Source of the DNA: a virus
Lineage: Duplodnaviria; Heunggongvirae; Uroviricota; Caudoviricetes
Length of the DNA: 12,800 bases
Reading direction: 5' to 3' (one strand)
IMG/VR virus record: IMGVR_UViG_2563366940_000002
Coordinates: 1-12,800 of that record
The notes beneath the pieces are model-generated. The model saw only the letters and a list, made by a program, of their open reading frames with translations, was not told the DNA's origin and searched no databases. A program made the position numbers and the translations under genes. This document shows positions 8,778 to 12,800 of the stretch, piece after piece; the first letter of the stretch is position 1, and each line of letters starts with the position of its first letter.

Positions 8778-9297
8778 CAATCCACCTGCGCACATTCTCA
8801 CCGGCTTCAGAAGCCACATCGGATGCTTTCGCGATTTCAGTTTTCACAGCATCAAGATGTACGGGTGATATATCAGGGTATTTACGCTGCAGTGTCTGAG
8901 GGACACGGACAAGGATCCCTGATATATTCTGTGCCACTCGCTGAAAGATGTAGGTAAATAACTCCGTCTCGAGGACAAGGCCTTCCTCACGAGCATTTTT
9001 CAGCTCCTGTGCATCGGCCTGTGCCTTCGTCAGTCGGTAACGTTCGTAATCAATGGTGCAGGGCTGAAGGTCTGATTCGCTGGCAGCCCTCAAATCCTCG
9101 ATCTCTTTACGGAGTTTTTCGTTTTCAATATCAGCTTCCCTCTGCGCATACCACTGAATGGCAGCAGTTGTATCAAAAACTGATTCAGTCCCTTTCCCTC
9201 CACCAGAAACTAGTGGTAACCCCTGACTCTGCCAGGCGGTGATGGTCCTGACATCAACGCCAAAAATATCGGCCAGTTTTTTCTTATTGACGTTCAT
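8749..9297 (-). CDS. Nu1: terminase small subunit
   Basis: 182 aa versus lambda Nu1 181 aa; N-terminal helix-turn-helix [27 protein letters not shown]...GGGKG and [40 protein letters not shown] match remembered Nu1. Immediately adjacent to cosB. Confidence 0.95.
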
Positions 9298-9510
9298 ACA
9301 CTCCCCCGGGAACCAGAAAGGATCTGAAAATGGCGTTTTCTAACAAAAACAGCCTTTGTCAGATCCTTTTATATTTTTAAAATTCTATTGATAATCAATC
9401 AGTTAAAAAGAAGAACGGATCTGATTTTTCCCTAAAAATTTTCATAAATAGCGAAAACCCGCGAGGTCGCCGCCCCGTAACCGGTCGGATCGCCGGAAAG
9501 GACCCACGAA
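9298..9510. other. lambda-type cohesive end site cos (cosB - cosN - cosQ side)
   Basis: 9450-9475 (AGCGAAAACCCGCGAGGTCGCCGCCC) is the exact reverse complement of the remembered lambda left-end sequence GGGCGGCGACCTCGCGGGTTTTCGCT; the 12-nt cohesive end GGGCGGCGACCT maps to 9464-9475 on the minus strand. Flanking sequence on the lysis side (reverse complement GGCGATCCGACCGGTTACG) resembles the lambda right end; the AT-rich stretch 9300-9450 towards Nu1 resembles cosB. Confidence 0.85.
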
Positions 9511-9587
9511 ATGATAATTATTATCATCTATATAAGGTTTATCACAACATGTGTGTACGCCATCAAACCACGAGAAATAATCAATTA

Positions 9588-9620
9588 TGACGCAGGTATC
9601 GTATTAATTGATCTGCGTCA
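9588..9620. promoter_or_regulatory. 8-bp perfect inverted repeat TGACGCAG-N17-CTGCGTCA upstream of the ylcI-like gene
   Basis: Read directly: tgacgcag at 9588-9595 and ctgcgtca at 9613-9620, AT-rich 17-nt spacer, about 60 bp upstream of the 9682 start codon; a GATAAT -10-like hexamer lies between. Candidate operator or binding site; function not established. Confidence 0.3.
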
Positions 9621-9681
9621 AATTAACGTAAAAGCAACTTCAGATAATACAAATCAGCAACACTGAATATGGGGAAACATT

Positions 9682-9867
9682 ATGTCATCAAAGAACAGAA
9701 CCCGCAGAACAACAACCCGCAACATCCGATTTCCAAACCAGATGATTGAACAAATTAACATCGCTCTTGATCTGAAAGGTTCAGGAAACTTTTCAGCGTG
9801 GGTTATTGAAGCCTGCAGAAGAAGGCTGTCAACAGAGAGTTCGGGTATGAATTACATAATTAAGTAA
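9682..9867 (+). CDS. ylcI: YlcI-like small protein (DUF3950 family), function unknown
   Basis: 61 aa beginning MSSKNRTRRTTTRNIRFPNQMIEQINIAL..GSGNFSAWVIEACRRRL, which I recognise from memory as the YlcI/DUF3950 family found next to nohD (Nu1 homologue) in the E. coli DLP12 prophage. ATG at 9682 preceded by GGGGAAA; opposite strand to all structural genes. Confidence 0.7.
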   Translation: MSSKNRTRRTTTRNIRFPNQMIEQINIALDLKGSGNFSAWVIEACRRRLSTESSGMNYIIK

Positions 9868-9999
9868 CATGGTGTTCACAGAACACGCAGTTACCGGACA
9901 CATCAGTTTTCCATTCGCTCCCTGGCAGTACAGGCTTCCCCTCTGACGGGATAGCCTGAAAAAATAACACAGAAAATTATTTGTTATAATTAATATAAC

Positions 10000-10140
10000 T
10001 TACTCAAAAAAAAGCGACGAGAAAATCAGCATCAACGAACAATAAGCGCCAATACGTGATAACAAATGGCAGCCATATTTATCTGCAGTATAAGCAATGG
10101 ACAGGATAACCACTCCAGAAACCGTCAGCATAAAATCCAT
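10000..10140 (-). CDS. hypothetical 46-aa hydrophobic peptide (uncertain)
   Basis: Hand translation MDFMLTVSGVVILSIAYTADKYGCHLLSRIGAYCSLMLIFSSLFFE; ATG at 10140 with GGGGAAG about 7 nt upstream; two short hydrophobic segments. Lies in a T-rich (minus strand) stretch, where hydrophobic ORFs arise by chance, so it may be spurious. Confidence 0.2.
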   Translation of the reverse strand: MDFMLTVSGVVILSIAYTADKYGCHLLSRIGAYCSLMLIFSSLFFE

Positions 10141-10490
10141 TTGAACTTCCCCGGACAAAATCGACTCATCTAAAGATTTACAGCTCTTTTTATTATCAAT
10201 ATGTTAAAAGTAAAATAAACAGATGTTCAATAACACGAATACAAAAACGTGCTGAAATTCAATGAATCCATTTCTGTGTCATCAATTAATAGTGATAAAC
10301 ATCCGGCTTCTTCCACCATCGCACCGGACAGGCGACTATGAGGGGACAACGCCGCGCTCCGTTAACGCGGTAAACCCCGGTGTGTGTCGTTTTTGATTAT
10401 CCCCGCACACTCGCGCAGAGGAGTCTCCCTGTCGGGCTGCGGTCTCTGTTAATGCGGGGATACGGCGACAATACCGCGCATCAGCAAAAC

Positions 10491-10964
10491 CTATTTCAGG
10501 CACTGAGTGCGGATATAGTCCTGCGCCCCTTCCAGCTGCTTCTGCATCAGCATCAACCGTTCTCTGAGAGTGAAATAATCCCGTTCAGCGGTGTCTGCCA
10601 GTTGGGGGCCGGTTGCATTATCCACGCGGGCGGTGCCGGTGGCTTCACGCACGGGACCTGGACAGGTGGCGTTGATACGCAGGCGCTTACGACCAGCGGC
10701 AACGTCAGCGCGAAGAGTTTCATTTTCAGCTCTCGCATCGGCTAATTCCCTCGAGTATTTTGCATCGAGCGCAGCAACATCGCGCTGGCGCACCTGCATA
10801 TCAGTAATGGTTGCGTTCGCCAGCTTCAGTTCACTGGCTTTGTTATCGCGCTGCGCTTTGTAGGTAATCGCGTTATCACGGTAATGGTCTGTTGCCATCC
10901 ACAGCGCTCCACAGGCCACCAGCAGAATAACGATAAACGCGGAAAGCATTCGGTTTATGTTCAC
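10491..10964 (-). CDS. Rz: i-spanin (inner-membrane spanin subunit)
   Basis: 157 aa versus lambda Rz 153 aa; N-terminal transmembrane segment then [14 protein letters not shown]....[45 protein letters not shown]...REAT...[33 protein letters not shown], strongly colinear with lambda Rz. GTG start at 10964-10962 overlaps the upstream gene stop (GTGA). Confidence 0.9.
10553..10738 (-). CDS. Rz1: o-spanin (outer-membrane lipoprotein spanin subunit), embedded in +1 frame of Rz
   Basis: 61 aa; lipobox LPLVVSAC then proline-rich [27 protein letters not shown], matching remembered lambda Rz1 (LPLVVVGC...[27 protein letters not shown]). Entirely inside Rz in another frame, as in lambda. Confidence 0.85.
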
Positions 10965-11092
10965 CCCAGCAGCCCCGACGAAGACAACATCATCCAGGCC
11001 ATGGAAAGAAAAAGAGCAACCAGCATTAGTGAAAATGAAATGCCGACAATTACACAGAGGATCTTCGCCAGCGTTATGAGTTTGTCTGACAT
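10961..11092 (-). CDS. hypothetical 43-aa hydrophobic membrane peptide
   Basis: [43 protein letters not shown]; ATG at 11092-11090 preceded by AAGGGAGGA with ideal spacing; stop overlaps Rz GTG start; upstream gene stop TGA overlaps this Shine-Dalgarno. About 34 consecutive hydrophobic residues. The ORF-track version (73 aa from 11182) is trimmed to this internal start. Confidence 0.5.
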
Positions 11093-11106
11093 GCTTAATC
11101 CTCCCT

Positions 11107-11289
11107 TCACGATTTCAACGCAATGACCAGTTTTGCCAGCCCATACAGCATCGGGGACACAGCAACACCGACCGCCACCCACTTAATGGCAAAAGCCAGT
11201 GCTCTGCTGATGTCATCAGTTACAGGCGCTTTCAGTTCAAGGCCGTTTTTCATAGTCAACCTCAACAGAATTCGTTTATACTTTTCCAT
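11107..11289 (-). CDS. hypothetical 60-aa tail-anchored membrane protein
   Basis: [60 protein letters not shown]; ATG at 11289-11287 preceded by AAGGGAGAA; basic N-terminal region and one C-terminal transmembrane segment. Trimmed from the ORF-track start at 11322, which has no ribosome-binding site. Confidence 0.5.
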
Positions 11290-11322
11290 GTTCTCCCTTG
11301 CCTTATCCAAGGTCAGAAACAC

Positions 11323-11355
11323 AAAACCCCGCTTGCAGCCAACAAACGGGGTTTT
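11323..11355. terminator. putative bidirectional intrinsic terminator between endolysin and the small membrane-protein genes
   Basis: 13-bp stem with one mismatch (aaaaccccgcttg at 11323-11335 pairs with caaacggggtttt at 11343-11355), 7-nt loop, A-tract / T-tract arms, and T-rich flanks on both strands (plus: ttacttttatt; minus: gtgtttctg). Confidence 0.5.
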
Positions 11356-11445
11356 TACTTTTATTCACTTAGGTTTTGCCAGTTCTCAGGATTTCGTGTT
11401 ATCCGTCCGCATTAGCCAACGTCATTTTTCAACAAAATATTCTGC

Positions 11446-11979
11446 TTATTTGTCAATTCCCCAGCACGCCAGCGCGCTCTCCTGGTCACGCCGTGAGACC
11501 TGTCCATAGCAGTTATTTGAACGAATACGGCAGTCTCTGCCACCGTCCTTAATCCACCAGCGAATCGCCTCACATGCTCCCCTGCGATCGCCAGCATTAA
11601 TTCGTCTGTAAAACGTCGACGGGAAACACTTACCGGGACCAATGTTGTACGGACAGAATGACGCGATCCCCGCTTTCTGGGGTTCGGTCAATGGCACTTT
11701 GATGTTTTTCTCCACCCATGCCAGCGCCTTATCACGCTCAATGGCGTTAACCCGGTCGCATTTTTCCTTCGACAACTTCATGCCCGGAACGACAGGTTTG
11801 CCATCCACCAGGATGGCACCGCGGCAGATGGTCCAGATACCCGCGCCATCACGGTATGCCGTGGTGTGGTTACCTTCCTTTTCATCCAGAAACTGGTCGA
11901 GAATGTCAGGCGCAGGCGCACCAGCGGCAATCAGCGCCAGAACGGCAGCCGACAGGCCGTATCTGATTTTTGCGTTCAT
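11446..11979 (-). CDS. R: endolysin, T4-type lysozyme fold (GH24) with probable N-terminal SAR (signal-anchor-release) domain
   Basis: 177 aa; catalytic spacing E-x8-D-x5-T in FLDEKEGNHTTAYRDGAGIWT as in T4 lysozyme and P21-type R; Gly/Ala-rich weakly hydrophobic N-terminus (GLSAAVLALIAAGAPAP) typical of SAR endolysins; overall resemblance to remembered P21/DLP12 RrrD-type lysozymes. ATG at 11979. Confidence 0.9.
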   Translation of the reverse strand: MNAKIRYGLSAAVLALIAAGAPAPDILDQFLDEKEGNHTTAYRDGAGIWTICRGAILVDGKPVVPGMKLSKEKCDRVNAIERDKALAWVEKNIKVPLTEPQKAGIASFCPYNIGPGKCFPSTFYRRINAGDRRGACEAIRWWIKDGGRDCRIRSNNCYGQVSRRDQESALACWGIDK

Positions 11980-12084
11980 GGATATTTATCAGGATTTATC
12001 GGTTTCTGAGCCCTGGATATGTTTATCAGTTCCAGCCTGTTGCCTCAGGCTGCTAACAGGTCAATACAATCATGAGGATTATTT

Positions 12085-12357
12085 ATGGACAATAACACCA
12101 TTTCTCTACAGGAGTTGCTCGACAGCATTTCCAGGCTTCGGGAAGACGTGAATACCCTTACCGTCGCCTTCTCATATCTGGCATTCTCAATTCCAAGGGA
12201 ACAGATGCAATCAACGCTGGCATCAATCCAGTTTGAATCATGCAATCCCAAATGGTCTCAGGAACAACAAGACTCTTTCAGGCGGCTTGCTGTATTACTG
12301 GATGAAAAATATGCTGGTAAAATTACCATTTCGGCGGACTCTTCAGAGAACCCGTAA
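12085..12357 (+). CDS. hypothetical protein, 90 aa, no recognised family
   Basis: ATG at 12085 preceded by GAGGA at about 7 nt; possible sigma70-like TTGCCT ... TACAAT upstream (12040-12070, spacing slightly long). No transmembrane segment, N-terminal region looks helical. Overlaps the 3' end of the convergent 114-aa ORF by 35 nt, so one of the two may be spurious. Confidence 0.4.
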   Translation: MDNNTISLQELLDSISRLREDVNTLTVAFSYLAFSIPREQMQSTLASIQFESCNPKWSQEQQDSFRRLAVLLDEKYAGKITISADSSENP

Positions 12358-12667
12358 TTATTCCCGGTAGTTTTCCTCTGTAGGTTATCAACACATCCTG
12401 CGCCTCTAAAATTACGGGGCGCTTTTCCGGCGACTGCTCATCCCCTTCACATAACCCGGCAGCAACATCCAGGAAGACCTGTCTGATGCTCCTTCTGGCT
12501 GCTGCCTCATAAAACTCCAGCGCGGCACCTTCAACACGGTCCAGCGAGATGTCCAGGTCAAAAATTTCACCGTCAAAGCGTTTTTTGTCCCGTAACGCTA
12601 AAGTTACCGTAACTTTATTCTCAAAATTGCGGATCCCTTTCACAATCAGTTTATAGTTTTGAGTCAT
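12323..12667 (-). CDS. hypothetical protein, 114 aa, no recognised family
   Basis: MTQNYKLIVKGIRNFENKVTVTLALRDKKRFDGEIFDLDISLDRVEGAALEFYEAAARRSIRQ...; ATG at 12667-12665 preceded by GGGGAGAG. Same strand as the lysis genes; no transmembrane segment, so not a holin. The ORF-track 5' extension to 12799 is read-through of the IS end and is discarded. Confidence 0.5.
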   Translation of the reverse strand: MTQNYKLIVKGIRNFENKVTVTLALRDKKRFDGEIFDLDISLDRVEGAALEFYEAAARRSIRQVFLDVAAGLCEGDEQSPEKRPVILEAQDVLITYRGKLPGIITGSLKSPPKW

Positions 12668-12706
12668 TGAATTACTCTCCCCGTGCAGCCTTACGACGGT
12701 CCTCTC

Positions 12707-12800
12707 TGAACCGCCCCGGGAATCCTGGAGACTAAACTTCCTGAGAAAGAGGTAAACAGGATGACTAAAAATACTCGTTTTTCCCCCGAAGTCCGTCAAC
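12707..12800 (+). mobile_element. left end of an IS3-family insertion sequence (IS629 / IS1203-like), truncated by window edge
   Basis: 12707 onward reads TGAACCGCCCCGGGAATCCTGGAGACTAAACTTCCTGAGAAAGAGGTAAACAGG ATG ACT AAA AAT ACT CGT TTT TCC CCC GAA GTC CGT CAA, which I recognise from memory as the IS629-type left inverted repeat plus the start of orfA (MTKNTRFSPEVRQ). Confidence 0.85.
12761..12800 (+). CDS. IS3-family transposase OrfA, first 13 codons only
   Basis: ATG at 12761 preceded by AGAGG; translation MTKNTRFSPEVRQ matches the remembered N-terminus of IS629/IS1203 OrfA; truncated by window end. Confidence 0.8.
   Translation, partial: MTKNTRFSPEVRQ

Follow-up and report, generated by a model that had tools for sequence, protein, structure and literature searches.

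The last part of the window, a stretch of 12,800 nucleotides, carries lysis genes on its minus strand. The endolysin gene R (11446-11979) encodes an R21-like lysozyme of 177 aa whose N-terminus is predicted to be a SAR (signal-arrest-release) domain; the protein matches PF00959 (E=3e-24) and the endolysin family phrog_7. Its spanin partners form a lambda-type pair, as an earlier note on this DNA had recognised: the i-spanin gene Rz (10491-10964) aligns to profile positions 1-125 of 126 in PF03245 (E=5e-50), and Rz1, the o-spanin lipoprotein gene (10553-10738; PF06085, E=1.3e-20), lies wholly inside Rz in the +1 frame. The Rz product has an N-terminal transmembrane domain (TMD) with a Kyte-Doolittle (KD) hydropathy of 2.46, the lipobox of Rz1 can be read in the sequence as VSAC, and RefSeq places the Rz start at the ATG at 10949, giving a protein of 152 aa. 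Two small open reading frames (ORFs) of 60 and 43 aa and a terminator-like hairpin, all on the lysis strand, occupy the interval between R and Rz. Upstream of R lies ydfR (12323-12667, minus strand; PF07041, E=1.3e-41; phrog_406), which RefSeq labels a YdfR family protein; its 114-aa DUF1327 product, with a best hydropathy window of 0.69, is soluble, as had been stated before. An antisense ORF of 90 aa (12085-12357, plus strand; phrog_2411, E=1e-58) sits between ydfR and R and overlaps the 3' end of ydfR; RefSeq lists it as a hypothetical protein, and it is called in all relatives.

The earlier note had concluded that no recognisable holin lies upstream of R. A hydropathy scan that covered, on either strand, all ORFs of 30 codons or more above position 10400 found no hydrophobic segment in 11980-12800, so there is indeed no intact membrane ORF. 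What had been missed, apart from an adjoining IS629 end (12707-12800), is that the minus strand at 12672-12706 is precisely the 3' end of a P21-type holin gene. These 35 nt, ten codons and a stop, are the remnant of a class II (phage 21 S-type) pinholin gene and are identical to the end of a 71-aa holin gene in E. coli ML35 (L001, 2823-3038). Since this S stump stands at the window edge, where an insertion sequence (IS) cuts the gene, a holin is recognisable upstream of R, only as a stump. The S21-class match upstream of 11979 that had been named as possible counterevidence thus exists as remnant homology, without an intact ORF; a full-length PF04971 ORF is absent from the cassette in the window, where S consists of its last 35 nt only.

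Uninterrupted relatives show what the complete gene looks like. Their 71-aa S, labeled "class II holin family protein", matches PF04971, "Bacteriophage P21 holin S" (E=9e-33, 63 of 64 profile positions), and an M1/M4 dual start and two hydrophobic stretches are readable in its sequence. S of the intact relatives is a class II pinholin of the phage 21 family, with a hole-forming function predicted by homology. Near-identical E. coli prophages and deposited phage genomes share the order nanS-p, S, ydfR, R, 60-aa ORF, 43-aa ORF, Rz/Rz1. Many sequenced E. coli genomes contain uninterrupted prophages whose lysis region is 100% identical to the one here, and the window is 99.8% identical to them as a single piece; E. 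coli ML35 and FDAARGOS_1249 are examples of strains with the uninterrupted prophage. Collinearity with intact prophages spans 12.7 kb and reaches from lysis to head genes, and the relatives retrieved by an exact look-up of YdfR were all uninterrupted. The stop codon of S is separated from ydfR by 4 bases in the uninterrupted E. coli prophages, and the order S-ydfR-R recurs in seven further loci, in phage PhiR12_1 and in BP-4795. In this family S does not normally adjoin R: it precedes ydfR, at a distance of about 0.7 kb from R. The expectation of S next to R, drawn from lambda and phage 21, therefore fails here, where S-ydfR-R is the normal order, and the suggestion that the holin had been relocated is contradicted by the P21-type class II holin that every intact relative carries directly upstream of ydfR.

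Homology to the uninterrupted prophages ends exactly at window position 12709/12706. From 12707 to the window edge at 12800, which cuts the element, the plus strand carries the left end of IS629 (IS3 family), with the terminal inverted repeat TGAACCGCCCCGGG and the start of orfA, an ATG at about 12760 reading MTKNTRFSPEVRQ. At 93 of their 94 positions these nucleotides agree with the left end of an element of 1310 bp in another genome (L002); along its whole length this element shares 98% identity with elements annotated as IS629 in phages BP-4795 and Stx2_499. The first three nucleotides of the S remnant, GAG (12704-12706), are the predicted target-site duplication. A public contig, L012, contains the reciprocal junction, ATCAGAG joined to TGAACCGCC, and at the S::IS629 fusion it reads TTCAAAATCAGAG followed by TGAACCGCCCCGGG. 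The 114-aa S::IS629 fusion protein predicted under the model of a 3-bp duplication was found with 100% identity and coverage as P0001, which lies outside the window and still matches PF04971 (E=7.5e-30). The GAG duplication becomes visible only when the window and L012 are combined, the remainder of IS629 lying outside the window, and the insertion site after nt 184 of S is found in this one public contig, a 7.5-kb metagenome contig with 3.7x coverage that runs through repeats and may be chimeric. Searches of 5,426 complete E. coli genomes, the GTDB species representatives and the JGI metagenomes did not turn up the exact junction of the S 3' end with IS629, and the 5,426 complete genomes also lack the reciprocal junction of the S 5' part with IS629.

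We interpret the locus as a late lysis cassette of a well-known type, belonging to an E. coli prophage that is lambdoid and resembles Stx phages. Its S gene appears to be interrupted at codon 61 of 71 (after nt 184 of 216) by a 1310-bp IS629 that runs antisense to these genes and is flanked by a 3-bp target-site duplication, GAG; the sequence past 12800 is predicted from the related records. To this explanation as a whole we assign a probability of roughly 0.9. On this reading, the window shows a known cassette of pinholin, SAR endolysin and spanins, with a holin disrupted by an IS.

Whether the insertion is still in its simple form bears on the rest of S. It is possible, if unlikely, that an IS-mediated rearrangement has taken place at the edge of the window, through recombination of this IS629 with another copy, a deletion or an inversion. 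The late promoter and the first two-thirds of S (its 5' part) would then no longer be adjacent, and the source cassette would have neither holin nor promoter. The far end of the IS in L012, the only public contig with the reciprocal junction, adjoins an IS5-like fragment and not the 3' end of S, so that the two halves of S lie apart in some lineage unless the contig is chimeric. The upstream part of this contig carries an internally deleted nanS-p beside a pmrD-like gene, and together these features suggest a decayed, rearranged prophage. Against this stand the low coverage and possible chimerism of L012 and the collinearity of the remaining 12.7 kb of the window with intact prophages. A comparable IS629 insertion (L013) is also simple: it is an independent event in the same S gene, at codon 45, with both halves in place and a distance from S start to ydfR start of 1533 nt (220+1310+3).

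Other IS629 copies at the same holin gene differ in position, the one in L013 interrupting codon 45 and the one in L002 flanking S just upstream. In several E. coli lineages, IS elements have independently landed in this pinholin gene or right beside it. Such repeated hits are compatible with a site that is locally prone to insertion, or with selection that favours prophages defective in lysis. With its predicted length of 1310 bp and target duplication of 3 bp, the insertion would resemble the IS629 elements (IS3 family) of E. coli and Shigella prophages.

The SAR-type endolysin proposed earlier is borne out as a prediction. R has a T4-lysozyme-like fold with the catalytic triad E-8aa-D-5aa-T (E35, D44, T50), and it aligns from residue 30 to the structures of phage 21 R (PDB 3HDE/3HDF) with these three residues in register; RrrD (4ZPU) also aligns. 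The N-terminus has K4 and R6 followed by GLSAAVLALIAAGAPAP, a segment that is 59% Gly, Ala, Ser or Thr, and its best 19-residue KD window reaches merely 1.74, compared to 2.5-2.9 for the TMDs of Rz and the 43-aa ORF; this composition and weak hydropathy make the R N-terminus SAR-like. The layout of n-region and h-region, with K4 and R6 before a hydrophobic stretch, also resembles that of an ordinary cleavable Sec signal peptide, with which the enzyme would be secreted and a depolarising trigger would be unnecessary. We consider this very improbable. Both Ala-X-Ala motifs (A19-G-A21 and A21-P-A23) have Pro at +1, which blocks signal peptidase I. The segment is also Ala/Gly-rich as in known SAR domains, the alignment to R21 with its triad in register speaks against a signal peptide, and the partner of R in the relatives is a pinholin-family S, which is unable to release a cytoplasmic enzyme. 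Published surveys class endolysins of this type as predicted SAR endolysins (PMC8136144), and a predicted SAR endolysin and a pinholin of the P21 S family occur in almost all (99%) of the Stx phages analysed (PMC8136144, PMC10462455). Export of R, its tethering and its release on depolarisation would follow from this homology and from the pinholin-family S of the relatives.

By homology, an intact cassette of this kind would work as the S21/R21 system does. There, R is exported by Sec and is held tethered and inactive via its SAR domain. S21 accumulates and then triggers, forming small holes that depolarise the membrane, upon which the SAR domain exits the bilayer and R refolds to an active enzyme. 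Rz/Rz1 disrupt the outer membrane last. If the 5' part of S is still present across the IS629, it would encode the 114-aa fusion, which would retain both TMDs and carry 53 IS-encoded residues in place of the charged C-terminal tail. In addition, antisense IS sequence of 1.3 kb or more would lie between the late promoter and ydfR, R and Rz. Because of the exchanged tail and the IS between the late promoter and ydfR-R-Rz, lysis timing would probably be impaired. A slow, holin-independent lysis via spontaneous SAR release could still occur if R is transcribed. The suggestion that the cassette is defective is partly right: it is supported in that S appears to be interrupted by IS629 at codon 61 of 71, and the consequence for lysis is a prediction.

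The features reported between R and Rz proved to be real. The hairpin just downstream of R (11323-11355, minus strand) resembles an intrinsic terminator, with a 14-bp stem followed by a T-rich tail; it folds at -21.6 kcal/mol (z=-3.9), none of 200 shuffles folds as well, and every intact relative, like phage PhiR12_1, has it in unchanged form. An Rfam scan of the whole window matched no family, and the hairpin is therefore not a known RNA element. The 60-aa ORF (11107-11289, minus strand) has a C-terminal hydrophobic segment (KD 1.88), belongs to phrog_1115 (E=1e-42, category unknown function) with no Pfam or NCBIfam match, and is 100% identical in seven deposited phage genomes. The 43-aa ORF (10961-11092, minus strand; phrog_4906, E=2e-23, unknown function) has a single TMD (KD 2.89), and its stop overlaps the GTG of Rz (GTGA), such that it is possibly translationally coupled to Rz. 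A tblastn search found it in 276 phage records, where its identity ranges from 65 to 100% and most copies are unannotated; it lies directly 5' of Rz in BP-4795 (ORF50) and Min27, and remains open and hydrophobic in diverged copies. In a crude codon analysis, third positions change most and non-synonymous changes exceed synonymous ones (e.g. 14 vs 5), the former being mostly hydrophobic-for-hydrophobic; this pattern gives only moderate support for coding.

It had been proposed that one or both of these membrane proteins took the place of a canonical S and provide the holin, or the depolarising trigger, that the SAR endolysin needs. This is extremely unlikely. Each does contain a hydrophobic segment, both belong to the lysis cassette and are packed closely with Rz, and the 43-aa ORF is widely conserved. 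But neither has a holin-family match in Pfam (E<=0.1), NCBIfam or PHROGs, the window itself contains the S stump, and in the relatives both always accompany an intact P21-type S, which makes them an addition and not a replacement. A holin-less "releasin" system like that of Mu was rejected on the ground that the intact relatives encode a canonical pinholin. The idea of an independently transcribed moron also found no support, as a promoter scan of the lysis strand detected no sigma-70-like site in the gap from R to the 60-aa ORF. A tentative and rather doubtful proposal is that the 43-aa ORF, and possibly the 60-aa ORF too, encodes an unrecognised accessory lysis factor; the 43-aa protein could modulate pinholin triggering, SAR-domain release or spanin activation. 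Its ORF lies close against Rz and keeps that place in hundreds of Stx-type phages, mostly without annotation.

In comparison to phage 21, the relatives' S shares the PF04971 family, the two TMDs and a dual-start motif, here MYQM, where that of S21 is MKSM. R with its catalytic triad and weakly hydrophobic N-terminal domain and the embedded Rz/Rz1 pair are further likenesses. Unlike in phage 21, ydfR and the antisense 90-aa ORF lie here between S and R, the hairpin and the two small membrane ORFs lie between R and Rz, and S is cut by IS629. The context of nanS-p, S, (ydfR), R and Rz/Rz1 resembles that of Stx-converting and lambdoid E. coli prophages (BP-4795, the Min27/933W type and PhiR12_1), including the same 43-aa ORF directly before Rz, and the cassette of Qin-type prophages is essQ-ydfR-rrrQ. 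Many Stx phages have ant between R and the 43-aa ORF, where the 60-aa ORF sits here; Min27 lacks ydfR, which is present here; and this copy differs from Stx-type cassettes by the IS629 in S. Accessory small membrane proteins are encoded between the endolysin and spanin genes in phage P2 (lysA) and phage Mu (releasin). Their position offers an analogy for the 60-aa and 43-aa ORFs, but these showed no sequence similarity to any annotated family, and the intact system here has a canonical pinholin.

For the cassette itself, these findings matter little beyond correct annotation. They illustrate how a SAR-endolysin cassette can seem to lack a holin through the combined effect of the gene order of its family (S-ydfR-R), an IS insertion and the edge of the window. 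Two side points may be of interest to prophage biologists: the recurrent IS hits at the pinholin gene and, in Stx-type phages, the largely unannotated small membrane ORF that is conserved just ahead of Rz. If that ORF does encode an accessory lysis factor, the lysis cassette of Stx phages, by which the release of Shiga toxin is controlled, would be incompletely described by the standard four genes.

All lysis genes of the window lie on its minus strand, and profile matches, hydropathy and folding confirmed the endolysin, Rz/Rz1, soluble 114-aa gene and hairpin described in the earlier note. In the direction of lysis transcription, the cassette begins with an insertion sequence end (12800-12707) and a 35-nt stump of a holin gene (12706-12672), followed by ydfR (12667-12323, 114 aa, YdfR/DUF1327, E=1e-41), the endolysin gene R (11979-11446), a hairpin (11355-11323), two small ORFs of 60 aa (11289-11107) and 43 aa (11092-10961), and Rz (10964-10491, PF03245, E=5e-50) with embedded Rz1 (10738-10553, PF06085, E=1e-20). 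Between ydfR and R, a 90-aa ORF antisense to the lysis operon (12085-12357, plus strand; phrog_2411, E=1e-58) overlaps the ydfR 3' end by 35 nt and is called in all relatives; no Pfam match was found for the window copy, and one phage record labels the ORF in the equivalent position 'DUF1823'. Downstream, the cassette is followed by an AT-rich stretch that contains a DUF3950 gene; beyond this come the terminase, portal and head genes. This AT-rich island (9250-10250, separating Rz from the small terminase gene; GC about 0.38 vs about 0.55 in the flanks) carries the DUF3950 YlcI/YnfO gene (9682-9867, plus strand) and, on the opposite strand, a very hydrophobic 46-aa ORF (10000-10140, MDFMLTVSGVVILSIAYTADKYGCHLLSRIGAYCSLMLIFSSLFFE; hypothetical in RefSeq), a moron-like layout.

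Hydropathy scanning of both strands, covering every ORF of 30 codons or more, found no hydrophobic segment between 11980 and 12800. The earlier statement that no recognisable holin precedes R therefore holds for intact membrane proteins, but overlooks the 35-nt stump. When 10400-12800 was compared with complete E. coli genomes by megablast, hundreds of prophages matched at up to 100% identity, every one of these matches ending at query position 92, corresponding to window 12709; the whole window aligns with the same prophages as one collinear piece, from 12709 down to 1, at 99.8% identity. Their gene order, for example in E. coli ML35, runs from SASA esterase (nanS-p) through a 71-aa class II holin, YdfR, the antisense 90-aa ORF, lysozyme, the 60-aa ORF and the 43-aa ORF to Rz. 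The intact holin gene, S, stops 4 nt before ydfR, and its product matches PF04971 'Bacteriophage P21 holin S' (E=9e-33) as well as PHROG holin families. The final 35 nt of this gene recur unchanged at window 12672-12706, and the 3 additional matching nucleotides reflect chance agreement with the IS terminus. Since the S-ydfR-R order also occurs in seven further loci and in the deposited phage genomes PhiR12_1 and BP-4795, S upstream of ydfR is the normal order for this phage family.

The remaining window sequence, 12707-12800, reads TGAACCGCCCCGGGAATCC...ATGACTAAAAATACTCGT... and agrees at 93/94 nt with the left terminus of an element of 1310 bp from another E. coli genome; this element has 98% full-length identity to IS629 annotated in phage BP-4795 and in Stx2_499. 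The IS and the lysis genes have opposite orientations. A simple insertion, given the 3-bp duplication that IS629 typically makes, predicts the other junction and a 114-aa S::IS629 fusion protein, and exactly this fusion (P0001, 100% identity, 100% coverage) was found in a search of a 5.8-billion-protein collection. On its contig (L012, ENA ERZ1743101) the junction reads ...TTCAAAATCAGAG followed by TGAACCGCCCCGGGTTTCC, which together with ...GGTTCA followed by GAGAGGACC in the window shows that GAG was duplicated at the target. As a caveat, the far IS end in L012, a low-coverage metagenome contig running through repeats, adjoins an IS5-like fragment and not the S stump. In the source genome of the window, the 5' part of S could lie directly across the IS or could have been moved by IS-mediated rearrangement. 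An independent IS629 insertion at codon 45 of the same gene is a simple one (L013, protein P0002; spacing between S and ydfR starts 1533 nt = 220+1310+3). Within L012 (2487-5970), a group II intron-type reverse transcriptase gene (RVT_1 + GIIM, 507 aa) splits the IS629 copy, and nanS-p upstream of this copy is internally deleted.

In several E. coli and Shigella genomes, mobile elements have independently struck the same P21-type holin gene or its close vicinity. These cases include IS629 at codon 45 (L013 6001-7534), IS629 just upstream of S (L002 2285-3594) and three different C-terminal fusion tails, each beginning after codon 66/67 (in P0013 from S. sonnei, in P0021 and in P0079). Such recurrence suggests that the site is an insertion hot spot or that lysis-defective prophages are selected for.

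The suggestion that small membrane proteins have replaced the holin is not supported, because the 60-aa and 43-aa ORFs accompany intact S everywhere. Neither matched a Pfam or NCBIfam family, and both fall in PHROG families classed as unknown function. Only 14 phage records contain the 60-aa ORF. The 43-aa ORF, encoding a single transmembrane domain (also at L010 2486-2632 and L016 1501-1629), occurs in 276 phage records at 65-100% identity, always just before Rz, with its stop overlapping or closely preceding the Rz start. It is ORF50 of BP-4795. These records include 933W/Min27-type Stx2 phages, and most of them, RefSeq Min27 among them, leave the ORF unannotated. Diverged copies are still open and still hydrophobic; the case for purifying selection from simple codon counts is only moderate. 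The strong hairpin downstream of R (-21.6 kcal/mol, z=-3.9) and both ORFs are identical in PhiR12_1 and all intact prophages, which makes them compatible with a complete cassette. Read-through of an internal terminator is expected in the Q-antiterminated late operon of lambdoid phages.

R is a PF00959 lysozyme (E=3e-24) that aligns with the phage 21 endolysin structures 3HDE/3HDF and DLP12 RrrD, and its residues E35, D44 and T50 coincide in position with the R21 catalytic triad. At its N-terminus, K4 and R6 precede GLSAAVLALIAAGAPAP, a segment with 59% Gly/Ala/Ser/Thr and a best 19-residue Kyte-Doolittle window of 1.74 (vs 2.46 for the Rz transmembrane domain and 2.89 for the 43-aa ORF), which is a predicted SAR domain signature. 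Proline after an Ala-X-Ala motif counts against signal-peptidase cleavage, and since it directly follows both such motifs here, the sequence argues against cleavage of R. According to published surveys, almost all Stx phages analysed carry a P21-family pinholin, a predicted SAR endolysin and Rz/Rz1 (PMC8136144; PMC10462455).

What the parts are, how they are arranged and where IS629 joins the S stump are directly observed; by homology to S21/R21, R would be exported by Sec and stay membrane-tethered and inactive until pinholin S triggers and depolarises the membrane, upon which the SAR domain would be released, R would refold and the spanins would then disrupt the outer membrane. In this copy, the insertion would have cost S its charged C-terminal tail, or its whole 5' part if rearranged, and would separate ydfR-R-Rz from the late promoter by 1.3 kb or more of antisense IS. 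The timing of lysis is probably compromised in this copy. SAR endolysins such as P1 Lyz and R21 can still give slow holin-independent lysis. The cassette is of an already known kind: many genomes carry annotated sequences identical to it, and the IS disruption is an ordinary one. The missing-holin puzzle dissolves, and the sole remaining oddity is the 43-aa ORF before Rz, which is conserved and unannotated.
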